Source: Stegostoma tigrinum (Eukaryota). Taken from it: 64,000 nucleotides of DNA. Each line of letters begins with the position of its first letter. Position 1 is the first letter of the stretch. Position numbers and translations under genes: made by a program. The stretch is from NCBI RefSeq assembly GCF_030684315.1, contig NC_081368.1, positions 57,241,734-57,305,733 of the forward strand, in the 5' to 3' direction. Positions 2,900 to 63,106 of this stretch are shown here, in pieces. Under the pieces are notes generated by a model. That model had not been told where the DNA came from, ran no database searches, and saw only the letters and a program-made list of their open reading frames with translations.

Positions 2900-3069
2900 A
2901 AACAGAAAGTACAGGAGAAACTCAAAAGTTTCTATTGACATCTGTGGAGGTAGAAATGTCTGATATGACTCTTCTACAGAACTGGCGACAGATGCTGCCA
3001 GGCCTGCTGAGCTTTTCCAGCGCTTTCAGCCCTTAGTTCAGATCTGCAGTATCTGCAGTATTTTGCTTC
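2900..3069. mobile_element. Fold-back Penelope-derived short element (older subfamily)
   Basis: Left arm 'aaacagaaagtacaggagaaactc...gacatctgt' is inverted relative to right arm 'acagatgctgccaggcctgctgagcttttccagcgctttc'. The right arm carries an extra tail 'gatctgcagtatctgcagtattttgcttc'. Confidence 0.7.
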
Positions 3070-3580: not shown

Positions 3581-4169
3581 GTGACAAATAAAAAGAGAAA
3601 CTGTTGGAGAAATACAACATCTACAAAGAGAAAGCAGCATCGACATTTTGAGTTCAGTGACCTTTCTCAGCATGTGCATGGAGCAATTCACCAGTATTAT
3701 CAGAGCCATGTTGGCTTCACCGTATGTGCACCTGACAGTTTCCATGGAGATGCTGATAACCACCAATGTAGAGCCAGATTCAGCACACGCAGTCTCTGCT
3801 GGATACGCACATGGACCTGCACTCCATCTCTATTGACTGTCGTGGATAACATCAATGGTAAGGTGAGCGGGAACAAGCAACTTTGACTTCACTCCCTTTG
3901 CATGTGATGCAGAAGACCAAGTCAATGACACTGGGATTACATCTGGCCAGGACCCTCTAAATTAGCTTGGATCCTCTTCATTCAAATGCTCCAGTGGAAA
4001 AACTAGTAAAATCCTCAAGAGCAAAGGGTGATCCCTGAGCATGTTATCACAACCTTGGCTGTGGAAGTAAGGGCAAGTAAAGACATGAGGGTGAGAAAGA
4101 AAAAATAACTTGCTGAGTGCACGGAGGTAGCACTGGTAACATAGCAGTAAAAATTACATGGCAATTTAA

Positions 4170-12080: not shown

Positions 12081-12246
12081 AGATAACAAGGTGTAGAACT
12101 GGATGAACACAGCAGGCCAAGCAGCATCAGAGGAGCAGGAAGGCTGATGTTTCGGGTCAAGACTGATGCTGCTTGACCTGCTGTGTTCATCCAGCTCTAA
12201 ACCTGGTTATCACAGACTCTCCAGCATTGGCAGTTCCTATTATCTC
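12081..12246. mobile_element. Fold-back Penelope pLTR-derived mini-element with 14-bp TSD
   Basis: Inverted arms 'ctggatgaacacagcaggccaagcagcatc' and 'gatgctgcttgacctgctgtgttcatccag'. TSD tatcttgctttgtg (12067-12080) / tagcttgctttgtg (12247-12260). Confidence 0.9.
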
Positions 12247-12875: not shown

Positions 12876-14283
12876 GACTGATAAGCAAATGGCTGGCTTG
12901 GGTTTGTCCTGCTTTTATTGCGTACAGGACATATTTGGACAATTTCACACATTGTTCAGTAGATGCTGTACTCTAACAGCTTAGCGAGTGGCTAGAACTT
13001 CTTCTAGCACACAAGTTTTAATCATTATTGCTGAAATATTGTCCAGACACATTGCCTTTCAGTGTCCAGTTCTACCCATTTGCCCATTTCTTAGCATCAC
13101 ATGAAGTGAATTGAATTAGTTAAAGGCTGGTATGTGATGTTGGAGGACCATTAGAGGGAATCGAAATAAATAATCCACTCATTCTGGCTGAAGGTAAATG
13201 TAAACCCTTTAACCTTGTCCTTTGCACTAATATGTAAGGCTTCTCCATTTTTGAAGATTAGGGTGTTTGTGGACCCTCCTTCACCTGTCCGTTATTTAAT
13301 TGTCTACCAATGTTTATAACTAAATGTGGTAGAATAGTAGACCTTAGATCCGAACAGTTGGTTGTGAGATCATTTAGCCCCATGAATTGCATGCTGCTTC
13401 TATTGTTCAGCATCTAAGTAATCCTGAGTTGTAGCTCTGTCAGATTTCTAAGATCATGGAGATCTTTTTTACCTATGCCTAGTTGCTCCCAGCATGACCT
13501 TCTGCATTCTTCATTGAACCAGGGTTGACCTTCTGGCTTGATGGGAATAATTGAGTGAGAAATATGCCAGGTCTTGAGACTACACATTGTGGCTGAATAC
13601 AATTGTTTCCCGGTGTCCCACAGTACTTTGTTAATGCACAAGTCACTAGATCCAACTAAGTTTGGTCCCATTTAACACACGGGTAGTGTCACACAATATA
13701 ACATAGTTTATGCTCAATGTGAGGGTGGGACTTCATCTCCACAAGCACTGTGGGGTGGTCACTTCTGCTCGTATAATTATGGTCAGATGTATTGTTGAAG
13801 TTGAGATCAAGTAGATTTCTCCATGTTGCTTGTTCCCACATGGTCTGTTGCAGAGCCTGTCTTGCAGCTATTTCTTGGGAGTTGATAAGCTTAGTTGACA
13901 GTGATGTTAGTGTGCCACTCTTGGTGATGGATGATGATGCTCCACAGCTAGAGCATTTGCTCCCTTGTCAGTCTCAATGCATTCTACAAGTAGCGTGCAC
14001 TATAAAGGAAGACTGATTATCAGCTGAGTGTGAGGGGAGCAGTACATAATAATCAGTAGTTTTCATTGACAATGTCTGATCTGATATCATGAGACTTCAT
14101 GGGGTCTGGAGTCACTTTTGGAAGACTCTCAAAGCAACTCCTCCCTGACCATAACATAGCTAAAGGAATCATTGTAGTATGCAACAATAGACCGTTAGTA
14201 AATGTCATGGAGGAATTAAATAATGTATTGAGAAAGACCTGCAAAAATGAATGAAGGAAACAGATAAGAACAAATTGTGATCA

Positions 14284-14411
14284 GAGATAATGGGAACTGC
14301 AGATGCTGGAGAATCTGAGATAACAAAGTGTGGAGCTGGATGAACACAACAGGCCAAGCAGCATCTTAGGAGCACAAAAGCTGACGTTTCGGGCCTAGAC
14401 CCATCATCAGA
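14284..14411 (-). mobile_element. Solo Penelope pLTR fragment with tail and hammerhead-like core
   Basis: Near-identical to 30597-30724. Flanked by the duplicated 'cagataagaacaaat' (14261-14275 / 14408-14422). Confidence 0.9.
14383..14410 (-). ncRNA. Minimal hammerhead ribozyme-like motif (PLE type)
   Basis: Reverse complement is CTGATGA-T-GGGTCTAGGCCC-GAAAC-GTC. Confidence 0.6.
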
Positions 14412-16507: not shown

Positions 16508-16582
16508 TCTTTCAGTGGTTAGCCATTTCTGTTTCTCCAATTGCAAAACATCCTGTTTCTGACGGTAAGTTACCTTGGGATC

Positions 16583-16678
16583 TCAGGGAGGGCCACCGGA
16601 CCGGAAACATTAACTCTGTTTTCTCCTTCAAAGATGTTGCCAGACCTGCTGAGCTTTTCCAGCAACTTTATTTTTGTT
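16583..16678 (+). mobile_element. Penelope pLTR-derived fragment (older subfamily)
   Basis: 'gaaacattaactctgttttctccttcaaagatgttgccagacctgctgagcttttccagcaac'; closely matches the reverse complement of 45726-45815. Confidence 0.75.
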
Positions 16679-16889
16679 CCAGAAGCGAGGTAATCCAGCT
16701 CAACAGACTCCAGAGTTTAAAAAGCAGGTGGGAAAACACAACAGCGCTTCATCGGAGCTTGCACTGCTGATGTTACCCAGCAGGATAATGAAACATATGC
16801 AGAACAACACGAACCAGCTCAGTGAACCAACCAGCTTCAATCAAAGCTCTAATTAGGGAAAGGCAAATGTAGCCAAAATAAGATATTAC

Positions 16890-23637: not shown

Positions 23638-23937
23638 AAAAGCAAGATAGATACATGCTGGAGATCTATGAGAAAAGCAGAAAGTGCTGGATAAGCTCAG
23701 CAGTATAAGAGGAGAGAGGAACAGAGTTAACTTTTCAAGTCAAATATGAATTCTTCAGAATTGAAGAGAGAGGTGGAAAAATTATGAGTTTAATACTGTG
23801 GCAAAAGGTGGGGAAGAGCATGTCAAACTGAAAGGAAGCTCAGGCAAAGGGGAGAGTATAGGACTATCATTTTTACACCTTCACTCATTCTGAAGGAATG
23901 TCATAGCAGAAAAAACCTGAACTCTTTTTCTCTCTTT
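23638..23937. mobile_element. Old Penelope pLTR-derived element, inverted pair
   Basis: 'cagaaagtgctggataagctcagcag...gagttaacttttcaagtcaaatatgaattcttcagaa' with a degenerate inverted partner 'ttctgaaggaatgtcatagcagaaaaaacctgaactc'. Confidence 0.6.
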
Positions 23938-28285: not shown

Positions 28286-30695
28286 CGCCACCATCTACTG
28301 TTTTGAGGTTGGGAACAGCGACGATCACAGGTTGATATGCACTTGAAGAAAGATTGAATTTGGCATTTGAAAGCCTGTTTCACCTTCAATTTTCCCAGCC
28401 AATACTATTTTCATGGAGTTGGGTGGGTTCCTGAATACTTTGAAAACAATGGCAAGTAAGTAATTTTTACGCATTGGGGAAAACTTGTTGTAGGGTTACC
28501 AACCTTAATGTGGCTACGTTTAAAAGGCCTTCCTCAATTCAATTTCCATAAAGTAATTATATTCAATGAGTTATATCCATCTTCAATGCAGTGATTAATT
28601 GTGGAACTCTGTGTTTAAACGACAAGGAGTTATTAAATTGACTAGCACTGCAGAACAGGTCAGATGAATTTGAATACTTTATCCATGAGATAGAGTGCTG
28701 TTCTGCCTTCTATAATGTGGAATCACATTTGAAAATGGGTGGACACCAGTGTTGCTGATTGATATTGATTATTGATATTATTATTATTGTTATTGATTTA
28801 ATATTTTGACATCGGTTGACTCTTTGAGGGACTCTTTCAATATGCACCAGATACACGGCCATTGTGTTGTATAATAACATTTGTAAGTTATTAAAGTGCT
28901 CAGGTTTTATTTTTAATAAGCTGATCAAATGGTGTTTTAAAATGGAAACACATACTATCACATAAATTGTTCAAGTATAAGCTGGAGAAGCCCCATTGAT
29001 GAAAAGTTAATTTCACTCAGCATTTCCTTATCTTGTCTAATTGAAGATACTTTAAAAACCTCTTTTCAAAAAAAAAAGTTTGAGTTGCTAGAAGCACATA
29101 AGACTGCTTGATAATCAAACAAATCAAGCAGTCCCCTTCATGCAGTGTAAAAACTACCCCCCCCCCGTTCAAAATTTTAAGATATTTGTCAGACAGGGAA
29201 CGGCACCAAACATTCATAATGAGGCTATCATACATCTGTTTCAACAAAAGCAGCCTGAACACAAAGTGAGATATTTGTTTCACAAAGTTGTTTCATTCTG
29301 AATGCCTGTCTGAGCTCCAAGAGACGTAGTTGGGCCTGTGATTTCTTCAACTGGACTTGCACAAAGTATGTATGATTAGCAATTTTATATGAATGTAAAA
29401 GTTCTTTTTTTTCCAGAGATTTTTGAAAGGCAGTGCCGGAATTCTCATGAAGATAGAGAATGTCTCCACCTGAGCTAAAATTATGCCAGATCCTTGATTC
29501 CTGAAGTTCCAACCCTAAACACAACACCTACTGTTTTTGATGGGCAGTTCAGAGTTCAAATGAAATATTTATGAAGTTTAATCATTGCAGCCTATTTATG
29601 CACGCAAGATGACACAAAAAGACAATACTATATTATCTGAAATGATCAGAAACGGATCTGTTCTTCACAGAACTGAAAACTAAAAATGATTTACCTCTTA
29701 GACTTCAATTTCCCTTATATGAATAATGTATTATAAAGTTTTTCTTTATACAGTGTGAACAGCTGTTCACTTACTGGCATTCAGAAACAAACCGTTGCCA
29801 TTTTCAAACATTTTTTAAAAACCTGACACCTTCTGAGCCAGCGCTCTCGATAAACTGGCAAAAATTGTATCCCTCAAATATTGCAGAGTTTAGTGCATTA
29901 TTGTGTCCAATTATTATAGGTTTTTAATGTAATTTACCTCAATGTAAATATACTTGTTGTTCAATTGAATGGCCAAATGAAACATCAAAGTTGATTCAAT
30001 TTTGAGCCAATTTCTCCTCAAATACCATCATAATCTACCATGGTAGTCAGTTGAGAGTGTGAGTGAGATGGCTTTTTTGCCAATATGTTTTATTTAAAGC
30101 AAAGTCACATTTTATTTAAATTATTTATGCTCGAAATAAAGTATAACAGTGATGTTTCTACCAGTGGAATTATGTTTCTATTAGCTAGTGTGTGATTTTA
30201 CATTGATTATTATCTGGAATATTTGATCAACGAGTACACTCCTGGCCCCAGAGGTGTTGGTTTATATATTTTTTTTAATTTTATTACTTTTTTTATTTTT
30301 ATTTGCTTAACTTTTAAAAATACAATTTATTCATGGTCCCAAAGGAGATAGGCTTAGGGATTCTGAAAATGGAATGGGGATCATTGCAAAATTAGTGGTA
30401 TTCAACGTAACAGGTAACACAAATCCACTTTATTTCAGTGATTGTTGTGAACATAAACTGCACTGTTGACTGATTTCATACATCAGTAGGCGTCCAATAC
30501 TTTAAATTAATAAGCACTATTTAAAAATAGCCTGCGCTGCTTCAAGCTATCCTACATCTCATAAAGATGAGGTACATCACAGCTTGAGCAGGTACAGAGA
30601 TAATGGGAACTGCAGATGCTGGAGAATCCAAGATAACAAAGTGTGGAGCTGGATGAACACAGCAGGCCCAGCAGCATCTCAGGAGCACAAAAGCT

Positions 30696-30723
30696 GACGT
30701 TTCGGGCCTAGACCCTTCCTCAG
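30696..30723 (-). ncRNA. Minimal hammerhead ribozyme-like motif
   Basis: Reverse complement is CTGAGGA-A-GGGTCTAGGCCC-GAAAC-GTC; the change falls at the variable N7 position. Confidence 0.65.
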
Positions 30724-31242
30724 AAAAGGGGGATGGGGAGAGTATTCTGAAATAAATAGGGAGAGAGGGGGAGGCAGACTGAAGATAGACAGGGGAGAAG
30801 ATAGGTGGAGAGGAGAGTATGGGTGGGGAGGTAGGGAGGGGATAGGGCAGTCCGGGGAGGATGGACAGGTCAAGGTGGCGGGATGAGGTTAGTAGGTAGG
30901 AATTGGATGTGCGGCTTGAGGTGGGAGGAGGGGATAGGTGAGAGGAAGAACAGGTTAGGCAGGCGGGGATGAGCTAGTCAGGTGCAGCCCAATGGTATCA
31001 ATGTGGATTTCACCAGCTTCAAAATCTCCCCTCCCCCCACTGCATCCCAAAACGCACCTCCATTTCCTACCTACTAACCTCATCCCGCCCCCGTGACCTG
31101 TCCGTCCTCCCCGGACTGATCTATCCCCTCCCTACCTCCCCACCCATACTCTCCTCTGCACCTATCTTCTCCTCTCTCTATCTTCAGTCCACCTCCCCCT
31201 CTCTCCCTATTTATTTCAGAGTCCTCTCCCCATCCCCCTTTT

Positions 31243-31270
31243 CTGATGAAGGGTCTAGGCCTGAAACGTC
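31243..31270 (+). ncRNA. Minimal hammerhead ribozyme-like motif
   Basis: CTGATGA-A-GGGTCTAGGCCT-GAAAC-GTC. Confidence 0.65.
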
Positions 31271-32764
31271 ACCTTTTGTGCTCCTAAGATGCTGCTTGGC
31301 CTGCTGTGTGCATCCAGCCCCACACTTTATTATCTTGAGCAGGTATAGTCAGTTTTACAGGAAATAAATATGTTCTTGGAAACACTATAGATGCAAAATG
31401 ACAGAGAGTGGAGATTCAAATATTTTCAGATTCTGCATTGAAGAGTTTAGTGGAGGTGAAAAATAAGGCAAATATCCTTTAACCAGAGAAGACTAGGATT
31501 CGCTTCTTGAAAGGAACTAAGCAGATAACCACAAATGTCATATTCCAAGCCCCAAAACTTGGGTAAATTTCAAAGATAGAGCGTGTGATCAAAGTCAATA
31601 AACGCATCTGCAAATACAGTATCCTCCCAATATACCATAATTCCATCATTTCACAGCAGCAATCTGAATCAATCAGGGTTTATCTGTATGGAGTAAAGGG
31701 TTAGTTATGCTTTTAAACTAAGAATAGTTATTGAGCATGTGTGCAAAGGACATGTAATTATGTTTAATAAGGCTTCTTATGTTCACTTATACAAGTATAG
31801 GTCTAATTCTGCTACAATGCCTAATATTGCATGCTTCACAACTGTCAGTGCTGCAGTTCTCACACCTCTATCTCACAACTTGCATACACTGCTCACAAGC
31901 CATCCTAGAAGCATGGCACCAAGCCCATTGGCATATATACCTCTCTTCTGAAGGACAAGCTGCAGCCCAGCTCGAGGCACCAGGGCTTCACTAGAGTGGA
32001 CAAGTATGGGACATCCATTCTGAGGGTGGGTCCAGCAACAGGTCTGAAACCATCGAAGGTGATTGCATCCTCATATCTTTGTAGAACCCAGTTCCTCCCC
32101 ATCCCTCAGGTTTACATGCTGGGGATCTTTGGAAGTGAAGGCTACATTCCCCAAAGGTTGAGTTATGAAGAGAAGAAAAACAGTTTCCTCAGCCCAAACT
32201 AAACTCCTGAAAGAATTCTTCTCTGCTCCCGAGCCTGCTGAAATATGAGATTTTCTTTAAACCAATGTCTCCTGTCTGACTCAGCAGTGACCAGCATTCC
32301 TGATGAGGCTGCAGAGATAGCAGCCACCTGACTGGCCCAGAAGAATCAGGAGATGCCACCTCTAATTTGGCAGCAGATTCACTATCAACCAATGAGGAGT
32401 GTCCCATGGTGCATTTTTATAGAAATTGGAGTCCTGCCTTTTGCAGTAAAATTCAGGCCATTGTTACTCACAAAGTTTCAACTAAAAGTAGTTGCTCCCT
32501 AGGCAGATATGGTCTCACATTGAAAGCAAGCTCTTGTACTCTTTTTCTGTGAGTTTTGCTAATTTTCCAAATCTGACTATATTCCAAGGGGAATGTCTAC
32601 TCCTCCACCCATGTGTGGTTTGTGGAGAAGCCTTGATGTCAGAGCAAGTCTCCTTTCACACCTTCCACACCTCCCTTTGCAGACCTTTGGAATATCAAAC
32701 AACTACACACTTGTAGAACTGATGCAAAAGATAGAACAAATAAGCTAGCAATTAACCTTGGACT

Positions 32765-33399: not shown

Positions 33400-33475
33400 A
33401 TAACAACGTGTGAAGCTGGATGAACACAGCAGGCCAAGCAGCATCTCAGGAGCACAAAAGCTGACGTTTCGGGCC
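33400..33475 (-). mobile_element. 76-bp Penelope pLTR insert with 12-bp TSD
   Basis: Nearly identical to 34972-35034 and truncated inside hammerhead stem II. TSD tttgctggcaag (33388-33399) / tttgctgacaag (33476-33487). Confidence 0.9.
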
Positions 33476-35020
33476 TTTGCTGACAAGGTTGTTTTGAAGC
33501 TCTGGGGACACAAAGTGGACAGAAATATTATTTCTCACCCTATTCCTTTGAAATACCTATTTGCAATCCTTCCTCTGAAATTCAAATTTTTTTGTGCTCC
33601 CTTTCTCCAATTTTCAATGAAAATGAACCTGAAACAAGAAACCCTTCCCCCTGAACTAAGGTGAGTGCACAGCCATTGCACACTCCACCTGCCTTGGATT
33701 CAACATGGCAGGAGCCGACCTCCCTGCATGCGCAGCTAGGCCGAAATATTCAATTGCTGGACAATTAACTGGTCATCGCTCACATATAACACAGGTCACT
33801 TGTACTGACAGGCCATCAGGACTCAAGTGAGATACCTCAATTTTCATGTAATGATGTTATATTTTGTGATGAATGTGCTGACAGATACTGACACGACTGT
33901 TAATGTCAATTTGAAAGTGCTTTTCAGAATGTTCACAGTGGATTTTTACATCAAATTGCAACTCTTAGTCATCAGAAATAGAACAATCATCGGCAATGTC
34001 AAGTGATTAGACAGGCCTGTAATCACTATCATTACACATCCTTCCATCATACATTCATGTAACCATTTTAACGCAATAAAGCAGATATAGCAGTTGCATA
34101 GGGCTGAGTGCAGTCTAGCTGCATTCTCCAGGATGTGTTAATCAGCCCCCTCAGGCTAAATGCCCTGTATGATTTGTGTGCAAGTAAGGTGTTAAATTTT
34201 ATTTCTACAGAAGGGTATTCAAAATGATTTGGTGAGAAAATCGATGGAATAACAAGAGTGATCTAGGTTTGGTTCACACTAGAAAGGGCTTCAGGAATGG
34301 AAAGAAAGATGAGATCAGAATTTATTTTCTAAAAATGATGTTTTCTGTTTCAGAATCATAAAGCTTCATAAATCATATTAAAAACTCTTGCAGTTTACTC
34401 TCACATTTGAAAAACAATGAATTAGTTAATTGGTTTTATTACAAAAACTTTAGCCTTTAAGGAACTATGAGGAGGGGAGGGGAGGAATGAGAACAAAATG
34501 TATCAGTAACTTCATCAAATGCAAAAATGCAATAGAGCAAATCTTTGCTCATCTCCTTGAATTTCAATATTAAAACAGTTTAACAAAGCCCATATAAATG
34601 CCTGTTTTAGCCTTGAATTCTTTTCAGGAGTGAAGTCATGCATACATTTTGTAATCAAATAAAAAGTAAATCTAATTTTCTTTGCTTACCTCAAAAATCA
34701 CACACATGGTTGTATTATCACAAGGTTTTTCATGCTCCATCAATGTAACTTCAATGAACGGCACTCAGAAATTCTGGCTGAATTTTACAAACCCCTGAAC
34801 AATGTGGTCAATGATGAGCCTGTAAGAAAATATAGTCATAGAGCCATAAAGCCGTACAGCATGGAAACAGACCCTTTGGTCCAATTCGTTCATACCGACC
34901 AGAAATCCTCAATTAATTTAGTTCCATTTTCTGGTATTTGGCCCATATCCATCTAAGCCAATAAAATGTGAGGCTGGATGAACACAGCAGGCCAAGCAGC
35001 ATCTCAGGAGCACAAAAGCT

Positions 35021-35048
35021 GACGTTTCGGGCCTAGACCCTTCATCAG
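35021..35048 (-). ncRNA. Minimal hammerhead ribozyme-like motif, sense to the PLE ORF
   Basis: Reverse complement is CTGATGA-A-GGGT(CTAG)GCCC-GAAAC-GTC. Confidence 0.7.
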
Positions 35049-35272
35049 AGAGGGGGATGGGGGGAGGGAACTGGAATAAATAGGGAGAGAGGGGGAGGCG
35101 GACCGAAGATGGAGAGTAAAGAAGATAGGTGGAGAGGGTGTAGGTGGGGAGGTAGGGAGGGGATAGGTCAGTCCAGGGAAGACGGACAGGTCAAGGAGGT
35201 GGGATGAGGTTAGTAGGTAGCTGGGGGTGCGGCTTGGGGTGGGAGGAAGGGATGGGTGAGAGGAAGAACCGG

Positions 35273-36742
35273 TTAGGGAGGCAGAGACAGGTTGGACTGG
35301 TTTTGGGATGCAGTGGGTGGGGGGGAAGAGCTGGGCTGGTTGTGTGGTGCAGTGGGGGGAGGGGATGAACTGGGCTGGTTTAGGGATGCAGTGGGGGAAG
35401 GGGAGATTTTGAAACTGGTGAAGTCCACATTGATACCATATGGCTGCAGGGTTCCCAGGCGGAATATGAGTTGCTGTTCCTGCAACCTTCGGGTGGCATC
35501 ATTGTGGCAGTGCAGGAGGCCCATGATGGACATGTCATCAAGAGAATGGGAGGGGGAGTGGAAATGGTTTGCGACTGGGAGGTGCAGTTGTTTGTTGCGA
35601 ACTGAGCGGAGGTGTTCTGCAAAGCGGTCCCCAAGCCTCCGCTTGGTTTCCCCAATGTAGAGGAAGCCGCACCGGGTACAGTGGATGCAGTATACCACAT
35701 TGGCAGATGTGCAGGTGAACCTCTGCTTAATGTGGAATGTCATCTTGGGGCCTGGGATGGGGGTGAGGGAGGAGGTGTGGGGACAAGTGTAGCATTTCCT
35801 GCGGTTGCAGGGGAAGGTGCCGGGTGTGGTGGGGTTGGAGGGCAGTGTGGAGCCAACAAGGGAGTCACGGAGAGAGTGGTCTCTCCGGAAAGCAGACAGG
35901 GGAGGGGATGGAAAAATGTCTTGGGTGGTGGGGTCGGATTGTAAATGGCGGAAGTGTCGGAGGATAATGCGTTGTATCCGGAGGTTGGTAGGGTGGTGTG
36001 TGAGAACGAGGGGGATCCTCTTGGGGCGGTTGTGGCGTGGGCGGGGTGTGAGGGATGTGTCGCGGGAAATGCGGGAGACGCGGTCAAGGGCGTTCTCAAT
36101 CACCGTGGGGGGAATGTTGCGGTCCTTAAAGAACTTGGACATCTGGGATGTGCGGGAGTGGAATGTCTTATCGTGGGAGCAGATGCGGCGGAGGCGGAGG
36201 AATTGGGAATAGGGGATGGAAATTTTGCAGGAGGGTGGGTGGGAGGAGGTGTATTCTAGGTAGCTGTGGGAGTCGGTGGGCTTGAAATGGACATCAGTTA
36301 CAAGCTGGTTGCCTGAGATGGAGACTGAGAGGTCCAGGAAGGTGAGGGATGTGCTGGAGATGGCCCAGGTGAACTGAAGGTTGGGGTGGAAGGTGTTGGT
36401 GAAGTGGATGAACTGTTCGAGCTCCTCTGGGGAGCAAGAGGCGGCGCCGATACAGTCATCAATGTACCGGAGGAAGAGGTGGGGTTTGGGGCCTGTGTAG
36501 GTGCGGAAGATGGACTGTTCCACGTAACCTACAAAGAGGCAGGCATAGCTGGGGCCCATGCGGGTGCCCATGGCCACCCCCTTAGTCTGTAGGAAGTGGG
36601 AGGAGTCAAAAGAGAAGTTGTTGAGTGTGAGGACGAGTTCAGCTAGGCGGATGAGAGTGTCGGTGGAGGGGGCCTGGTCGGGCCTGCGGGACAGGAAGAA
36701 GCGGAGGGCCTTGAGGCCATCTCCATGCAGAACTATATTCAT
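35273..36742 (-). CDS. Penelope-like RT (C-terminal core and thumb), Cys linker and GIY-YIG endonuclease; N-terminally truncated
   Basis: QTKGVAMGTRMGPSYACLF (RT motif B'), FLRYIDD (catalytic), TFLDLSV, Cys-rich CNRRKCYTC...FTC linker and NVVYCIHC..C..LYIGETKRRLGDRFAEH (GIY-YIG). 489 codons without a stop; the first ~5 codons come from junction filler. Confidence 0.93.
   Translation of the reverse strand: MNIVLHGDGLKALRFFLSRRPDQAPSTDTLIRLAELVLTLNNFSFDSSHFLQTKGVAMGTRMGPSYACLFVGYVEQSIFRTYTGPKPHLFLRYIDDCIGAASCSPEELEQFIHFTNTFHPNLQFTWAISSTSLTFLDLSVSISGNQLVTDVHFKPTDSHSYLEYTSSHPPSCKISIPYSQFLRLRRICSHDKTFHSRTSQMSKFFKDRNIPPTVIENALDRVSRISRDTSLTPRPRHNRPKRIPLVLTHHPTNLRIQRIILRHFRHLQSDPTTQDIFPSPPLSAFRRDHSLRDSLVGSTLPSNPTTPGTFPCNRRKCYTCPHTSSLTPIPGPKMTFHIKQRFTCTSANVVYCIHCTRCGFLYIGETKRRLGDRFAEHLRSVRNKQLHLPVANHFHSPSHSLDDMSIMGLLHCHNDATRRLQEQQLIFRLGTLQPYGINVDFTSFKISPSPTASLNQPSSSPPPTAPHNQPSSSPPPTASQNQSNLSLPP
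35290..35405 (-). repeat. 39-bp tandem repeat (about 3 copies) at the PLE ORF end
   Basis: Encodes repeated NQPSSSPPPTA(PH/SQ); also present at 55524-55600. Confidence 0.85.
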
Positions 36743-37749
36743 CTATATTCACCAATCCATCTAAGCCCTTCCTTTTCACATAGCCATCCAGATACCTTTT
36801 AAATGTTGCAGTTGTACCAGTCCCCACCACTTTCTGTGGCAGCTCATTCCATACGCGCACTACCCTCTGCATGAAAAAGTTGCCCTTTAGGTCCTCTTAA
36901 GAGTTTCTTAATGTTTTAAAAATAAAGCCCAACCAAGATTTGAAGAGCAAGTATGAGAATTTTACCAATGAGTGTTAAGGGGCCAATTCCCTTATTAGAA
37001 TCTCATTAGTATCTAATGTCACCACAGTCAGATGCAGTTTCCAATTCTGCCGCACTGAGAAGAACCACTAAGCCGCGAGATTTACCAAAATGAAAGTCAA
37101 AGCAGGTACCCAGTGTCTCCAGCTTGCTGCTTGTTGCTCCAGCCATCCATCTTGGATGTCAGTCCCAAACACCTCTGGGCATGCTCAAAGGGTAGATTCT
37201 GCCTCAATACCCCATCACAGAGGTTAGCATTGGACATGAACCAGCCAAACCAAATCATCATGGCATATTTCCAACATACTTGGAATATAGTTCACAATTT
37301 AGGGGGAGCAATTTGGAGCAACCAACACTTTACGTTGTCTTCCTGCTGCCAGGATGCCTTGCACATGCCGATCTTAGGCATTAGAGCAAGGTTCTTCACT
37401 TACTGTATTAGTGCTCGCTTTACACCAACTTGAATGGCCACAGCATTTGATGCCATCTTGTCTTGCATTTTGTGCTTTTAAACTTGCTATAGGACTTACA
37501 GACTCTCAATCCTTCTGCCAAGTTTGACCCTATGTTGCTTTCCATCATTACATGAATTACAAAAATGTGATAGAAATGGCTGCCGCCACACATAAAGTGG
37601 CTCGCATTAGCGTTCTATTTTCTGTTTAAGCACGTGGATTCTACTTGCAGCATTGTGAGATCCTTCAAAGGGCAACTGCATCAATTATGTATTGACAAGA
37701 TGCTACAAGTGCAGGGAGCTGATTTCCTCTTATGTTGAGCCAAAAGTGT

Positions 37750-38510
37750 CCACAAACCCTTCCTATTCATATACCCATCCAGGTGCCTTTTAAATGTTGA
37801 AATTATACCCACCTCCACCATTTCTTCTGGCAGCTTATTCCATACATACATTGCCGTTTGGGCGAAATGGTTGTCCCTTGGGTCTTTTAAAAATTTTTCC
37901 CCTCTCACCTTAAAACTATGCCCTCTACTTTTGGATTCTCCCATGCCAGGAAAAGACCTTGGCCATTCACCCTATCCTTGTTCCTCTTGATTTTATAAAC
38001 CTCTATAATGTTACTACTCAGTCTCCGATGCTGCAGGGGAGAAAAAAGCCTCAGTCTATTCAACATCTCTATTTAGGTCAAACCCGCCATTCCTGGCAAC
38101 ATTCCTTTGTAAATATTTTCTGCACCTTCTAGAGTTTAACAACGTCCACTCCCAAGGCCCTACTATGTACTATTTCAAGTCCTTCCCTGCTTTGCTTTCC
38201 CAAACTGCAACACCTTACATTGATCCAAATTAAACTCCATCTGCCAAGCCTCGGCCCATCTGACAAAGGTCCCATTGTACTCTGAGGTACCCTTCTTCAC
38301 TGTCCATGGCACCAGCTATTTTTGTCATCTGTAAGCTTACTAACAATACCTCATATATTCACATTCAAATCATTTATGTAACTGACAAAAAGGAGCTGAC
38401 CCAGCATTGATCCTTGTGTCACACCGCCAGCCACAGGCGTCCAATCCAAAAACTAGCCCTCCACCACCACTCTTACGTTCAAGTCAATTTTATATGCTAT
38501 GTGGTTCCAT
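37750..38510 (-). mobile_element. CR1 LINE RT/C-terminal fragment with internal deletion
   Basis: GESKSRGHSFKVRGEKF...VWNKLPEEMVEVG; reverse 'aagcttacagatgacaaaaatagctgg' is a degenerate KFADDTKI. Confidence 0.88.
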
Positions 38511-40441: not shown

Positions 40442-40577
40442 AAGCAAAATAATGCACAGGCTGGAAATCTGAAACAAACACAGATGTTGGAGAAACGCAG
40501 CAGGTCTGACAGCATCTGTGCAGAGAGAGAAAAACACCATTAATGTTTCAAGCCCAGTATGTCTCTTCTTCAGAACT
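40442..40577 (-). mobile_element. Solo Penelope pLTR fragment with tail (older subfamily), ending at the hammerhead 5' edge
   Basis: Reverse complement begins 'agttctgaagaagagacatactgggcttgaaacatta' and continues 'cagatgctgtcagacctgctgcgtttctccaacatc'. Confidence 0.75.
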
Positions 40578-42964: not shown

Positions 42965-43174
42965 AAGATAGTAAGAACTGTAGATGCTGGAGTCAGAGAT
43001 AACACAGTGTGGAGCTGGAAGAGCGCAGCAGGCCAGGCAACATCAGGGGAGCAGGAAAGTTGATGTTTTCATTTGGGACCCTTGTTCAGAAATGTCCTGA
43101 CCCAAAACGTCAATTTTTCTGTGCTTCTGATGCTGCCTGGCCTGCTGTGTTCCTCCAGGTCAACATTGTGTTGT
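42965..43174. mobile_element. Fold-back Penelope pLTR-derived mini-element with 12-bp TSD
   Basis: Arms 'cagcaggccaggcaacatcag' and 'ctgatgctgcctggcctgctg'. TSD cccttagactat (42953-42964) / cccttagattat (43175-43186). Confidence 0.88.
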
Positions 43175-45725: not shown

Positions 45726-45815
45726 ACAAAAACAAAGTTGCTGGAAAAGCTCAGCAGGTCTGGCAACATCTGTGAAGGAGAAAACAAAGTTGATGTTTTG
45801 GGTCTGGAGATCCTT
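45726..45815 (-). mobile_element. Penelope pLTR-derived fragment (older subfamily)
   Basis: 'gttgctggaaaagctcagcaggtctggcaacatctgtgaaggagaaaac', the reverse match of 16610-16678. Confidence 0.75.
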
Positions 45816-47204
45816 CTGTTGTTGTTGTAAAATGAGGCTGCCTTTGAGTAAAGGCATGTCACTTCAAAAATAATCACATTAGCTACATTTACATCAGCCT
45901 GCACCATAAAGCAGGAGTAAAAAACATAAACCATTGCCATACTCCTGACCTGGACATGTGGCTATTTTCCTCGCAAACACGTCGAAGATAATTTAATTCA
46001 TCACTTGCCTAACTTTGTAAAACTTAAGTAATCATTAAAAATACCTCAATCCAACATGTGTTTCCCAAATACTACTTTGTACCAAATGCCGCATTGTGCA
46101 CTCATTCACTGACATCAGATCCAATTCTAGTTAGATCTCAAACTAAATACTTTCTTTATTTTCAAACCACAGTCTTTCCTAGTTCTGTAATGTCCTCTAG
46201 CCTAGCAACCTTCTGTGATCTCTGCTCTCCTCCAATTCTGACCTCTTACGCGCCTCAGATTTTATCTGCTCCAATTTTGATGCCTTCAGCATCCTCTCAC
46301 CTGGCCTTTCATATTTTCTCTCTAAAACCTTCTGCCATCTTTCTTCTGTTTAGAGACCTCATAAGGACACCTTGTAAGTATTGTAATCTGATTTAAAACT
46401 TATTGCTATCATCTCTTAACTGTTGGAGCAAGATTCTTGTGTGAATAGAATGTCAAAAAGATGAATTCTAATTTTATCTTAGAATTTAAGCAGTCTTTTA
46501 AAGCCACATTCATCGTCCTAATGGCTTTGATAAAGGAGGGTGGGCAGAATTTAAAGCAAAATTAAAAAGGCATATGCACCACTATAAAATGTTGGGCAGT
46601 AAATTGGATCACAGCAAGATTAATTTCTAGGCAAAATGGACATAAAATGGATACGTAAGTCAAATTTAGAAGGCTATTGTGCATCAATTTGATACATATC
46701 TCTGTACAGTTATCCAAGGCATTCTTTTGAAACAAATGTTACCTCCATTACATATGAAAATTGAAGGTCTAACAACTGCTGCAGGCCTTTACTAATTTAA
46801 TTTGTGACTGTACATCGTATGCCACACAATCCAAACAATTCATATTGTTAGGCACTTGAAACGAAATCAGTGATCATCGAAAGGGGCCTCATGAAGCTAT
46901 CATCAGAGTGGTAAGTGTGAATTTTTTCATAAGCCTTATTAAAGGAATATCTCTTTCAAATTCTAACTTAAATTTACAGGCAACCTTGGTCTCATCCTAG
47001 CCTTCTCCACTATACGCCTGGTCAGTATCTTTTCTGGTGTCCACTGTGCTTTCTTGGACCAAAAGATTATCTTCGCTTTGTGGCAGATGCTTTGCAGATA
47101 TGTAAATATACTTAGAATAATCTGGTGCATGCATTTTTTTTCAAGAGTGAGTCCCATACTGTTGCAGATAGTATCTTTTTAGAAGGTTATGTTAAATCAA
47201 AGTC

Positions 47205-51840: not shown

Positions 51841-54090
51841 TGTGACACTGGGAGAGAGGGTAATTGTCACAAACGGCTGTGGTCGATGGCTAAACAGGGG
51901 ATTAATCACGTAAAATATTCTAGAAGTCATCGTGGAGAGCAGTAATAAGGGAACTCAAGCTACATGTGATGCCAGGGAAGAGCACAATGTGACCACAGTC
52001 ATTGAGATTGCGGCCACTGCAGCGACTAGGGACTCAGATGGTGAAGAGTTATTATACTCGGTAATCCCACCAGTGGGAAAAGAAAATATTGGGTCAAATT
52101 GGAGCAATGAGACCATTTGACGAAGATACCGAATGTTGGATGCTGCGCGCCGAACATTTTGATGCATTTTTAAGGGTGAATGAAATGGCTGAAGTCATAA
52201 CAGCTCTAGCTTTCTTGAGTATCATTGGGAGCCAGACCTTCATGATTCTAAGGAATCCACTGCAATCAAAGAAACCCATGGAGAAGGCAAACCAAGAAAT
52301 TTCTGAAGTGTTGGGAATTATTTTACACCAAAGTCACTGGAAATAATTGAATGTTTCCATTTTTATAAAGAGGCACAGAACAAAGGAGAACCTGTCACCA
52401 AATTTGTGGCTGCCTTAAAGAGGCTAGATGAACAGTATAAATTCAGAGGGTTCCTCCAAGATGCTTTGCAGGACCATTTGTCTTGTGGACTCCAACACAA
52501 AGCCATTTAACACAAGATACTAACATGGAGACATCTGGATTTTAAGCCAGCTTTCAAAATTGGTACCTTGATGGAGTTAACCACCAGCAAAGCAACACGG
52601 TTGAGTCATGGCGCCCTGGTACATAAAGTAACAGTAACTTAGCAAAGTGTGGTACCAACCTTAAAATGCCTCTGAAGTGGCAACAAGGAATCAATATGTT
52701 GGATTTGAGAAGACCAGTGCTGCAGGTGTAAGCGAGTGGGTCATATTGCCTGAAACTGAAAGGGACAACTCAAGCAAGAGAAGGTGTGAAAATTGAGACA
52801 ATAAGGCATAAGGTACATGCTGCCAGCCAGGGGGTAGACTGGGAGTCAGCTGGGCCTGCAGGAGAAGCATAAGGCCTAGAGACAACAGAGTTTTGGTTTA
52901 ACATCCTATCAGTACAGGGTGAAACTGATTGTTTCTGGGTTCTTCACAAATTAGAGGGGAAAGCAGTAAAGACAGAAAAGTGATAGAGATAGGGAAAATT
53001 GAAAGGCACCGCTACTGAAGCCTGTCGAGTGTACACTATGGATCTTCAGGGAGAAGTGGTGTCACTGATGGACTATGGGTAAAAGTATAATTAACGGATC
53101 AATGAGTCGAGTTGCCTCTGTACGTCGTGAAAGATGGGGATCCTGCACTTTTCGTACTCTTCTGGTCAGTGAAATTAAGGATAAATTGGGGCGTATTTAA
53201 TAGGCTGGCAGTCTCAAAAATGAGTAGCATGAGATATTTTAAGGATGTCTTCATGGAAACCCTGCTGACAATGAAAAGAGTAGATATTAAAATTTGGTCG
53301 AAATGGGAAGTTTATCCAAGAAATCTGAAGGCATGCCCAGTACCACAGGCCATCCAACTTAATGTGGAGGCTGAACTGGAATGGCTGGTGAATCTGGAAG
53401 CATTAGAACCAGTAACCACCAGTCAATGGGCCACTCCAAATGTCCTAGTCTTAGAAACAGTTGGCACAGTGAGGATTTGTGGTGACTTTAAGGTCACAGT
53501 GAATCCAACCTGAGTGTAGATCAATACCCACTTCCACTCATTGAGGATCTGTTCAGTGGGATGGTTGATGGAAAGAAAATTCTCAAAAATGGATCTGTTG
53601 CAGGCCCACTTACAGATGAGTGTCAAAAATGAGGATCAGCCACCGCTGACAATAGTGACACACAAAAGACTGTTCCACTACAAGTGACAACCTTTTGGCA
53701 TCAGGTCAGTTCTGGCTGTATTGCAGAGGGTCATGGATTAAATTTTCAATGGATTGCGAGGAGTTATGTGGATAATATTATGGTTGCTGGATCCTTCAAA
53801 GAGGATCATTCAAAAAATATAGAAGAGACCCAAGAAAAGTTGCAAGACCACAGCCTGCAAATAATAAAAGAGAGACGCATGACTTTTTTAAGGACTCTAT
53901 CAAGTATCGGACTGATGTTATCAGTGGCAAGGGACTACACAAGGCACCCAAGAGGGCTACTAGACCAGAGAATGTGTGCTGATCGAGATCATTTTTTGGG
54001 ATCTGTAAATTACTCTGGAAAGTTCGTATTTAATTTGGCAACTGCGTTTGAACCCCTGCATTGGTTGTTGGGAAAAGGTCATGAAATAGA
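51841..54090 (+). mobile_element. Gypsy (Mag-like) LTR retrotransposon remnant: probable 5' LTR, PBS, gag, RT; 3' truncated
   Basis: PBS-like tggtgaagag (52039-52048). Gag: IGAMRPFDEDTECW...FLSIIGSQTF and ECFHFYKEAQNKGEPVTKFVAALKRL. Zinc-knuckle remnant CCRCKRVGHIA. RT: SQWATPNVLV...VRICGDFKVTVNP, FSKMDLLQAHLQM, YVDN and FLGSVNYSGKF. Confidence 0.92.
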
Positions 54091-54593
54091 CCCAGGAATG
54101 CTCCACACTGAGAATTGTTGATGTATCATTTGCTCAGGGCAGTTAATAGGATTAGAAGCAGCATATTAGTAAGGAAAGATTTGCACTTAATACAGTCATT
54201 AATAAGCAATAATTTACATGCAAAGCAACATGCTGGTGCCTAGCGAGAATGCCATCTCAGCATCCCAAACTTACTTATAAACACAAGTTGGTCACAATAT
54301 CGAGAAAAGCCTCAGTAGACTTCTCATATCAGTCAACTAGGTTTCTAACCACATCAGATGTCGTTCAGGGCCTTCTAAAATTCTGCAATATGTGCACATT
54401 TTTCAAGCAATCATTGCACCCAGACTGCCACATTTGTACCTAAAAGCACCCAATGAGTGATCTATATCATGCAGCAGAAACCCATGGGATAATTTTCAAA
54501 AGCATAGGAAAAAGCAAAGGGATAGATTTTGCTTGTTGTTAACCTGGATTCTACTCATAACTAATCAGATCAGTGGTAAGGATGTGGCTCTTG

Positions 54594-55520: not shown

Positions 55521-55523
55521 CCA

Positions 55524-55929
55524 TCCCCTCCCCCCACTGCACCACACAACCAGCCCAGCTCTTCCCCTCCACCCACTGCATCCCCAAACCAGTCCAACCT
55601 GTCTCTGCCTCCCTAACCTGTTCTTCCTCTCACCCATCCCTTCCTCCCACCCCAAGCTGCACCCCCATCTACCTACTAACCTCATCCCACCTCCTTGACC
55701 TGTCCGTCTTCCCTGGACTGACCTATCCCCTCCCTACCTCCCCACCTATACTCTCTCCACCTATCTTCTTTTATCTCCATCTTCGGTCTGCCTCCCCCTC
55801 TCTCCCTATTTATTCCAGAACCCTCACCCCATCCCCCTCTCTGATGAAGGGTCTAGGCCCGAAACGTCAGGTTTTGTGCTCCTGAGATGCTGCTTGGCCT
55901 GCTGTGTTCAACCAGCCTCACATTTTATT
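55524..55929 (+). mobile_element. Young Penelope 3' end/pLTR copy, same subfamily as 34960-36754
   Basis: Near-identical to the reverse complement of 34960-35364 with the same terminus 'cagcctcacattttatt'. No TSD seen. Confidence 0.93.
55841..55868 (+). ncRNA. Minimal hammerhead ribozyme-like motif
   Basis: CTGATGA-A-GGGTCTAGGCCC-GAAAC-GTC. Confidence 0.7.
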
Positions 55930-56157
55930 ACGTGACAACTTCCTTAACTTACGATAGTAATTGTCGCGTTGACAGTTTTTCTTGCTTATAATTAGGGTAT
56001 TATGTAATAAGCACTGGTGTGTAAATATACTGCCTCACTGAAACATTCCAGACAATTGCACAGTTATCAATTCTATGAGAAGTAGCTCCATGAAAGGAAA
56101 AGGTAATATATTTTAATGACTACCCGATCGAACTTCAGTTGGCCATAATTTTAAATA

Positions 56158-57090
56158 ATCTATTCATGGGATGTGGGCACTCTGTCCAGGTCAGCATTTA
56201 CTGCCCATCTCTAATTGCCCTGGGGAAGGTGGTCATGAGTTGGCTTCTTAAGCTGCTGCAGTCCTTGGGGTGTAGGGATGCCCACATTGTTCTTAGAAAA
56301 GGAGCACTAATTTTTTGACCCAGTGACAGTGAAGGAATAGCAACAGAACTTGCAGTTAAGGTTAATTCTTTAAAATTGCTTTGGGGTTTGAAGATTTCTC
56401 TTCAATTTCAGAGAACTTGGAGCATTTGTTTTCCTTTTACAGAATGTGGTATTACTGATCAGTCCAATATTTGTTGTACACTCTGAGTCACCTTGAAAAG
56501 ATGGTGGTGAACCATTGTAGATTGCCATGTGCAAGTGCAGTCACAGTGCTGTTAGGAAAGGATTTCTAGGGTTTTGACCTAACAACAGCAAAAGAACAGA
56601 AATTACTTTCTGTTGTTCCCTTTCGTTTGCCAACCTGGACCTTCTACGTGGTTCGATAGTCCTGTTGTCTTGTCTTGGCAAGCTCTTTGTAGTGCATTTA
56701 ATGATGTAGTACGCTGCTGCCCCTGTATCATTGCTGAAGTAGGGAATGTTTAAGCTGGTGGATGGAGCTGCGATCAAACACATTCTTTTATATTGTGTGA
56801 TGGCAACCTCTGGACTGTTGTTGGTGTCGGGAAAGTGGAAAATCATCCGATGGCCTTTCGGAAGTTAAGAGCTCAGTTCCTCCTCACAGAATTCCCAGCG
56901 TCTGGCCTTCTCTTGCAAATGCACAACCAAAAACAAAAATTGCTGGAGAAACACGGCAGGTCTGGAAAATTCTCAAGGGAGAAGCCAGAGTTATTATTTT
57001 GAGCTCAATGACCCTTCTTCTTGGCTACCTCATTTTTGATTTGGAAAATCCAGTTAAGTTCTGCTTAATGGTAACTCCAGGATATTATTC
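56158..57090 (-). mobile_element. Two tandem 3' ends of the CR1/L2-group LINE family seen at 11050 (56158-56343 and ~56440-57090)
   Basis: 'tattcatgggatgtgggc...cagcatttactgcccatctctaattgccct...gcagtccttggggtgtag' is shared with 11060-11175. Confidence 0.75.
56925..57020 (-). mobile_element. Penelope pLTR-derived fragment (old)
   Basis: 'aaattgctggagaaacacggcaggtctgg...gagctcaatgacccttcttc'. Confidence 0.6.
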
Positions 57091-62312: not shown

Positions 62313-63106
62313 AGACAACAAGAACTGCAGGTGTTGGAGTCAGAGATAACACAGTGTGGATCTGGAGGAACACAGCATGCCAGGCAGCATCAGTGGAGCA
62401 AGAAAGCTGACTTTTCAGGTCGGGGCCTTTCTTCAGAACTGGTGAGGGGGAAGGACGCTCTGACATAAATACAGCGAGGAGGTGTGGGGCTGGAGGAACC
62501 TAGGTGGGATGGTGACAGGTGGATGCAGGTAGGGGATAGTGGGGTTTGGTCAGTGGGAAGAATGAGGCAGGTAGGTTGCAGAGAAGATGCACAGGTTTGT
62601 CAGGCCAAAGAGATGAGAGGGAGGATAGGAGGCACTGGGGAACGGTAGGTGGGATGGTGTTTGGGCCGATGGCGTCAGCGGGAGAAGCTGAGGCAAGAGC
62701 ACGATTAATCACACCAGGCAAACTGAGAGGGAAATCCTGGATAGAGTTGGGTTCTGGGGCAATGCAGGAGGCCTGTGTTTGGTGATCAACAGCGACAGCA
62801 GGAGAGGCCAAGGCAGCCATATGGTTAATGGTGTCGGGAAAATTGGTCAACAATTACCTTTCCCAAGCCCCACCTATCCTCCATTTCATCCCATTGACCA
62901 GACACAGCCTAGCCATTCTCCCTCCAACCTATCCACTCCAACCTTCCCACTGACCTATCCCCACTACTCACCTTGCTGCATCCACCTGTCACCATCCCAC
63001 CTACCTTTATCTAGCCCCTCTTCGACTCACTCTATTTATTTCCTAGCTCCCTTCCCTCTCTGCAGTTCTGAAGAACAGTTCTGGCTCAAAATGTTGACTT
63101 TCCCAA
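62313..63106. mobile_element. Older Penelope inverted-pLTR element with 11-bp TSD
   Basis: G-rich left arm with tail (62313-~62570) and C-rich inverted right arm (~62860-63104). Perfect TSD acctcatttag (62302-62312 / 63107-63117). Confidence 0.88.

Follow-up and report, generated by a model that had tools for sequence, protein, structure and literature searches.

Is the short hammerhead-like motif that follows the open frame of a Penelope-like element (PLE) in the shark Stegostoma tigrinum a ribozyme, and, if it is, does cleavage leave a trace in the copies that the element has inserted? We address this in a window of 64,000 nucleotides (the whole stretch of DNA analysed, from contig NC_081368.1), in which an initial annotation had described a minimal hammerhead-like ribozyme repeated across PLE-derived inserts. 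We consider it probable that the motif is a minimal type I hammerhead in the pLTR of a shark PLE, that it would cut slowly as a stem III dimer, and that its inserted copies would be inert and derived from mostly uncut RNA. Published sources are cited for those of their passages, figures and tables that bear on the motif; PMC6155905 and PMC6765202 were also drawn on in this way.

The 35-kb motif and its host element

The motif CUGAUGA-A-GGGU(CUAG)GCCC-GAAAC-GUC-AG occupies 35048 to 35019 of the minus strand; it is in the sense of the ORF and follows the ORF stop (stop codon 35273) after 225 nt. Its place on the ORF-sense strand and 3′ of the PLE ORF agrees with what had been annotated. The motif, the element that carries it and the target site divide as follows.

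35019..35050, minus strand: minimal type I hammerhead motif (sequence reading, descriptor, and consensus of PMC4209133 Fig. S3)
35049-35050 with 35019-35020, minus strand: stem I, 2 bp
35042-35048, minus strand: core CUGAUGA, C3 at 35048
35041, minus strand: extra unpaired A between positions 9 and 10.1
35029-35040, minus strand: stem II, 4 bp with loop CUAG (G10.1-C11.1 is G35040-C35029)
35025-35028, minus strand: GAAA, G12 at 35028
35022-35025, minus strand: palindrome ACGU (positions 15.2-16.2)
35021, minus strand: C17, with the predicted cut between 35021 and 35020
35051..35272, minus strand: pyrimidine-rich (80%) 3′ UTR, 5′ of the hammerhead, with an AG 22 nt upstream of C3
34960..35018, minus strand: element end past the cut site, a "short" 3′ end 61 nt after C17, without tail
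35273..36742, minus strand: open frame of a 5′-truncated Neptune-like PLE, 489 codons (homology begins at about 36730-36736)
34947-34959 (left) and 36755-36767 (right): 13-bp TSD of the insertion (null: score of at least 11 in 0/300 random window pairs)

Cervera & de la Peña 2014 (PMC4209133) give the minimal hammerheads of metazoan PLE pLTRs the consensus CUGANGAH-G...C-GAAAN-palindrome-NUH, in which the extra base and the palindromic positions 15.2-16.2 are general features and helix I counts at least 3 bp, D. virilis, Culex and Oikopleura being listed with 2 bp. The 35-kb motif matches this consensus base for base; the fit, together with its place after the RT/GIY-YIG ORF, bears out its annotation as a PLE pLTR minimal type I hammerhead. 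Stem III is, as proposed, reduced to the palindrome ACGU (35025-35022 in the young arms). Judged by its sequence, the motif is an ordinary member of a known ribozyme class: the extra A and the short stem I, which had been flagged as peculiar, both appear in the text or Fig. S3 of PMC4209133. A minimal-hammerhead descriptor matches five sites in the window (35048, 55841, 30723, 31243 and 14410), compared with a mean of 0.05 and a maximum of 1 in 100 window shuffles. An Rfam search of the window yielded no hammerhead family at E<=1 and eight matches, all below the gathering score; the miRNA matches at 12.1, 30.9-31.1 and 43.0 kb are inverted arms of the element.

The 35-kb ORF contains the RT motif YIDD (residue 93), a CX4CxxC linker (residue 312) and a GIY-YIG endonuclease with CxxC-YIGE (residue 355); two His downstream of YIGE, read off the translation, complete an RT followed by a C-terminal GIY-YIG with a CCHH motif. 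Pfam matches to this ORF are weak and below cut-offs for both GIY-YIG (E 0.0014) and RVT_1 (E 0.002). Because the DKG motif and the first RT aspartate of longer homologues are absent from the ORF, the element is 5′-truncated and non-autonomous. Its closest homologues are predicted proteins of Stegostoma (94% identity) and Rhincodon (88%), followed by those of other elasmobranchs and marine invertebrates (about 45-55%). The CX4CxxC linker is found in 104 of the 110 homologues having a YIG motif, and Craig 2021 (PMC8557442) reports a CX2-5CxxC linker in Neptune/Nematis and not in Penelope/Poseidon; the element is likely a PLE of the Neptune group, a clade assigned from motifs rather than from a tree.

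At the ORF C-terminus, three 39-nt tandem units (35293-35404) encode a Pro/Ser-rich extension, and the number of units varies among copies. About 20 nt of non-element filler (36735-36754) separates the truncated 5′ end from the TSD. The host site is in turn repetitive sequence that resembles 37754-37897 and that we presume to be a LINE 3′ fragment. We considered an ORF beginning in the hammerhead, like that of the Anolis element PAc, and rejected it: translation from the core AUG meets a stop after 13 codons, and the older arms have no such AUG. Across the 112 window frames of at least 78 aa, no host gene domain was detected. Two frames at 53106-54121 have no Pfam match at E 0.01; we take them to resemble decayed LTR-retrotransposon pol fragments.

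Arms, ends and conservation of the copies

An iterated nhmmer search with the element end returned 24 matches at E<=1, of which 17 have E<1e-3, and the same search on the reversed window returned none. We resolve 19 arms in 15 insertions (17 arms confident), counting two weak arms, 63068 (joined via its inverted repeat) and 3667. By these match numbers the motif is indeed repeated, but in more inserts than the roughly ten first counted; the eight further coordinates given for it are right (C17 at 14383, 30696, 62409, 40542 and 23729; C3 at 31243, 55841 and 63068). Relatives were searched for in viral, metagenome and prokaryote genome collections, and none were found there. Beside the 35-kb copy, the insertions are:

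2988..3060, plus strand: old arm beginning downstream of the hammerhead
3584..3667, minus strand: weak old arm, E 0.04-0.11
12081..12244, both strands: inverted two-arm insertion, about 15-bp TSD; the minus arm begins in stem II and has the short end, the plus arm begins ~20 nt past the cut site and has the tail
14276..14410, minus strand: short insertion from the hammerhead core, with tail, 15-bp TSD and intact motif
16580..16686, plus strand: old arm beginning at the core, decayed
23654..23760, minus strand: old arm, stem II and palindrome broken
30595..31333, both strands: one inverted pair of arms under a 12-bp TSD; on the minus arm the hammerhead 30696-30723 and the tail, on the plus arm the hammerhead 31243-31270 and the short end
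33400..33476, minus strand: young arm, 5′ end in loop II / stem II, 12-bp TSD
40454..40577, minus strand: old arm, longer loop II, broken palindrome
42965..43174: inverted two-arm insertion, 12-bp TSD, decayed; both arms begin within or just before the hammerhead
45726..45816, minus strand: old arm beginning inside the core, decayed
55522..55935, plus strand: young arm, 96% identity to the 35-kb copy across 408 nt, intact motif 55841-55868
56927..57020, minus strand: old arm beginning inside the core, decayed
62313..63106: inverted two-arm insertion of an older subfamily, 4-bp stem I, 11-14-bp TSD, cores broken; motifs at 62409-62436 on the minus arm, which has the tail, and at 63068-63095 on the plus arm, which stops about 10 nt past C17

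An intact minimal hammerhead is kept in 5/19 arms, all five with the core CUGANGA and GAAA...UH. The copies that had been called near-intact are intact by the descriptor, but at 31243 the first pair is G.U and stem I is down to 1 bp, and at 14410 the 5′ strand of stem I is flanking target DNA. None of the intact arms in the window has a same-strand partner in its own insertion, the second arm of an inverted pair being antisense; the window arms are solo or inverted only, and no same-strand head-to-tail tandem with full hammerheads is found among them.

TSDs scoring at least 9 flank 7/15 insertions, a score reached by 4/300 random pairs; at the 16.5k, 40k, 45.8k, 55k, 57k, 23.7k, 2988 and 3667 arms, no TSD exceeded the null. 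The four inverted two-arm units each lie under one TSD, and in all four the tail is on one arm only. Ten arms have both a C17 and a TSD-defined 3′ end: five end 61-65 nt after C17, four at 96-107 nt, and the 63068 arm at a third position, about 10-11 nt after C17; none of the ten ends at C17 itself. At 4/5 TSD-defined short 3′ ends (31334, 33399, 34959 and 43175), the adjoining target has CTT within 0-2 nt, in keeping with the way the element itself continues. Priming aided by microhomology, or a preference of the endonuclease, is suggested by this pattern.

The 5′ ends, by comparison, gather at the motif: 10/19 lie between -8 and +15 of C3 (core and stem II), 7/19 reach at least 60 nt upstream, 2/19 begin ~20 nt past the cut site, and none of the 19 window arms begins exactly at it. 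Uniform truncation produces such a cluster in 0.08% of simulation runs (scan-corrected p about 0.001), a value that goes with a zone picked after the positions were seen and with old-arm ends read by eye. Since 5′ ends cluster at the core and stem II and none lies at the cut site, the templates appear to have been mostly uncut. In the mechanism we propose, the RT would start 60-105 nt downstream and would frequently stop at the structured motif, or meet a transcript 5′ end just before it, and the copies in the window would be inert passengers templated by mostly uncut RNA.

We also examined four runs of assembly contigs, of which X3 is from the same species and X9 from another organism; runs X14-X19 are small shares, of which X14, presumably of RNA origin, was used. 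One run aligned 156,786 contigs over 221 bases, a figure that is not a copy number. The summed depth of X3 falls from about 44M over the motif to about 35M at 35088-35095, and from this modest drop most young copies do not end there. Two further signals were set aside as evidence of ends: at the X3 loose-end peak at 35049 (438 contigs), a subfamily indel lies and older subfamilies diverge as well, and the steep depth slope of run X5 across the motif could stem from a library made with restriction cuts, as the tail has a PstI site.

The sequence just upstream of the motif also differs with age. C3 is preceded by an AG at a distance of 2 nt in two old arms and of 21-23 nt in six arms. In the former (62437-62440 and 63064-63067), a pyrimidine tract and CAG end 2 nt before C3 and resemble a 3′ splice site; this CAG is lost in the young arms, where the AG 21-23 nt upstream is kept. 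CAGTT in the old arms also resembles an initiator. An intron ending just before the motif is not supported by X3, in which 0/15 skip joints listed (of 30) have GT-AG ends on the element strand.

Stem II pairing is kept across the nine older arms, with 32/41 cells paired compared with 22 at the best slid register, in a small sample of single decayed copies whose register was set by the analyst; arms 23757, 43089 and 33476 were left out because they have no register or lack a strand. The older arms have A-U at pair 2 (two arms), A-U at pair 1 (one arm) and U-A at pair 4 (four arms), and double changes at pairs 1 and 2 occur in three arms, a covariation across families. Older subfamilies had been said to keep the core, which holds only in part: each of the four older copies that were named has a broken ACGU palindrome, and 63068 also has G12>A. 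In young families of two organisms, the catalytic positions and ACGU are kept, and changes at 4% or above are limited to CpG-type positions, N7 and the loop. G12 and the palindrome CpGs are changed at 11-15% in X3, versus 7-11% for CpGs outside the motif; with the motif CpGs decaying like those outside, inserted copies appear to decay neutrally.

Possible cleavage in vivo, folding and the dimer question

We would expect the predicted cut after GUC to be slow and to be made by a stem III dimer, probably helped by the element's protein. Among known examples, minimal motifs of S. mansoni cleave only as dimers or trimers, and poorly (PMC4209133), and the Anolis motif cleaved only with protein (Frangieh 2024, PMC11167929); 1/9 Xenopus hammerhead dimers cleaved.

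The alternative that survives best would add to this explanation rather than replace it. According to it, the ribozyme cuts in vivo during retrotransposition, and a minority of insertions derive from the cut 3′ product: on reaching the 5′-OH at nucleotide 1.1, the RT would run off and switch to the short start of a second template, so that head-to-tail joints arise whose first base is that of the cut site. We hold this to be possible but on balance improbable. Among the 12 of 80 head-to-tail joints listed for X3, three connect 35020, the base directly following C17, with the short 3′ end of the family, in three junction spellings, with microhomology of at most 1 nt and with a summed depth of 696 of 1782 among the rows listed; the best-supported joint listed begins exactly at 35020. 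Among the 15 skips listed (from a total of 30), two have their break at 35020 too and a third has it at 35019. If the site is taken as specified beforehand, the rough chance is 0.05 for the joints and 0.02 for the skips. However, joints at 35136/35137 are nearly as deep (490), 35000 occurs twice among the skips listed, the three spellings may be one old event amplified, and the joint was seen in one run only. The cut site also has CTT at +3, which makes it similar to the targets of two window insertions, 35k and 43k, so a nested insertion into an older copy could give the same joint. The 35020 joint could be a footprint of cleavage in vivo or of nested insertion. Against the former stand the window arms, not one of which begins at the cut site, and the RNA-seq data of Frangieh 2024 (PMC11167929), for which the passages on Anolis report no reads beginning or ending at the cut site. 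We also observe X3 back-joints from 35052 to 35011 and 35018 (depth 317 and 51), which would duplicate the hammerhead in 35-43-nt tandems and are possibly tiny retrozyme-like dimers elsewhere in the genome.

A second alternative, which we find doubtful, is that the young-family motif no longer cleaves and is kept as a structural or promoter-proximal hairpin that binds a protein or ends cDNA synthesis. Stem I has 4 bp in the old copies 62436 and 63068, as had been described, versus 2 bp in the young arms, and across the runs the young-family pairs are U-A and C-G, or U-A and U.G. A G at position 2.3, which would form the third pair, stays below 4% in all 4 runs, and position 2.2 is U in 99% of X14; from these two figures the short stem I appears to be family-wide. 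The young families may be without any working stem I, which fits a non-catalytic or a vestigial role equally. Folding points the same way. The favoured fold of the young monomer pairs CUGAUG with CGUCAG (6 bp) around stem II (-11.4 kcal/mol, 72% of the ensemble), a hairpin that hides the catalytic core, with a folding z-score of -0.86 relative to shuffles; nearest-neighbour energies of this kind omit core tertiary contacts and proteins. On this model, the 2-bp stem I and the competing 6-bp hairpin would lock the core unless it is refolded, in agreement with the doubt already raised over the young family's activity. The gathering of 5′ ends at the core rather than at the cut site is as a non-cleaving hairpin would leave it, and in D. 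virilis a start site and an intron end lie just upstream of the hammerhead (PMC2377424). Mutating the Anolis ribozyme, moreover, left insertion in vitro unaffected (PMC11167929). The retention of all catalytic positions and ACGU in young families of two organisms nevertheless argues against a motif without cleavage. X9 also holds 36-nt matches with unrelated flanks, a related motif whose G2.3 brings stem I back to 3 bp (21 contigs in the top row), and the D. virilis motif, with its 2-bp helix I, still cleaved weakly once helix III was extended (PMC4209133).

The proposal of the initial annotation that two copies form an active double hammerhead by pairing in stem II as well as in stem III is very unlikely. 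In the young family, stem II makes up a fully self-complementary segment (homoduplex -22.6 kcal/mol), and this palindrome is indeed used in the dimer that is predicted best (-38.0 kcal/mol, compared with -5.5 kcal/mol for the active double hammerhead), but that dimer pairs the catalytic core away and is an inactive form; dimer energies of the 62k copy were discarded, as non-standard pairs had been forced. The self-complementary loop II is moreover confined to young arms (5/5, versus 0/9 older arms), and loop II variants that break it amount to about 4% each in X3. The topology is also non-nested. With stems II and III stacked coaxially, the 12-bp and 4-bp helices linking the two cores would leave each core in opposite directions, which would make the swap sterically implausible. 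Chance resemblance in a shark repeat without ribozyme ancestry would accord with the lack of an Rfam hammerhead match and the unremarkable z-score, but is extremely improbable given the exact fit to the published consensus at the expected PLE place, a near-identical motif in coral Neptune and the stem II pairing kept in the older arms.

Significance and comparison with known systems

For the class as a whole, the import of the locus is small, as minimal hammerheads in PLE pLTRs were described in 2014. Their role is still debated, with a motif that is dispensable in vitro and RNA-seq without cut ends (PMC11167929), and Craig 2021 (PMC8557442) calls the function of PLE hammerheads unclear. Sharks offer an abundant young family in which 5′ ends, tandem joints and the loss of stem I from old to young can be mapped by computation. 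We entertain, tentatively, the idea that shark genomes are a fossil record of PLE hammerhead cleavage that, despite a stem I of two weak pairs and a locked default fold, is switched on by the element's protein, affects a fraction of templates and yields units starting from nucleotide 1.1 and joined to the next unit at its internal RT start site. If many independent nucleotide-1.1 joints bear this out, they would amount to evidence from the genome for cutting in vivo by a metazoan PLE hammerhead, for which our literature search found no paper, and the large shark families would let the frequency of cutting during retrotransposition be measured from DNA alone.

In the other organism, one 412-nt contig of X9 (depth 39) has 0 differences to window positions 34973-35136. 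X9 holds 0.6 of the element's words yet only 41 matching contigs, and the exact match could reflect trace contamination from which the young family was assembled, or else horizontal transfer.

The initial annotation had suggested that the shark architecture may be uncharacterised. In favour of this, no chondrichthyan is among the species of Table S1 and Fig. S3 of PMC4209133, and in the passages returned by a literature search for the shark motif, sharks are mentioned only for the motif's name. Against it, nearly the same motif is listed for Acropora Neptune, and a 2026 preprint (bioRxiv 10.64898/2026.07.22.740005) applied canonical and minimal type I models to one chondrichthyan genome.

The closest listed relative is the Neptune of Acropora digitifera (PMC4209133), which has GAAACGUCAGC in common with the shark motif; the main difference is helix I, with 3 bp in Acropora (stem I GCU/AGC) versus 2 bp in the young shark family. 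Metazoan PLE minimal hammerheads in general are like that of the shark in having CUGANGA with one extra base, G10.1-C11.1, GAAAC-GUC without loop III, the palindromic 15.2-16.2 and a pLTR site 3′ of the ORF, as well as many dispersed truncated copies, several families per genome and opposite-strand pairs 100-700 bp apart. The hammerhead of D. virilis Penelope shares the 2-bp helix I and the extra base before helix II (PMC4209133), and its motif likewise lies close behind a 3′ acceptor, real or splice-site-like (PMC2377424). Unlike in the shark, its helix I consists of two G-C pairs, a 2-nt palindromic insert sits in helix III, helix II has 6 bp with a bulge, and the element belongs to the Penelope/Poseidon clade, without the Zn linker. 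The animal non-LTR retrozymes of the 2026 preprint carry type I hammerheads from PLE pLTRs and are reported in one chondrichthyan genome; they are head-to-tail tandems of at least two full-hammerhead units, whereas the shark window has solo and inverted arms only.

Poseidon PAc of Anolis carolinensis (PMC11167929) resembles the shark element in its two classes of 3′ ends, 30-40 nt apart and downstream of the hammerhead, and in insertions from uncut RNA; two internal RT start sites of the Anolis element make the optional tail. PAc differs in its clade and in an ORF that begins inside the hammerhead. Finally, the published insertion structure of EN+ PLEs, with 5′ truncation, an adjacent inverted copy and an optional 30-40 bp tail at one end, is the structure that we observe in the shark.
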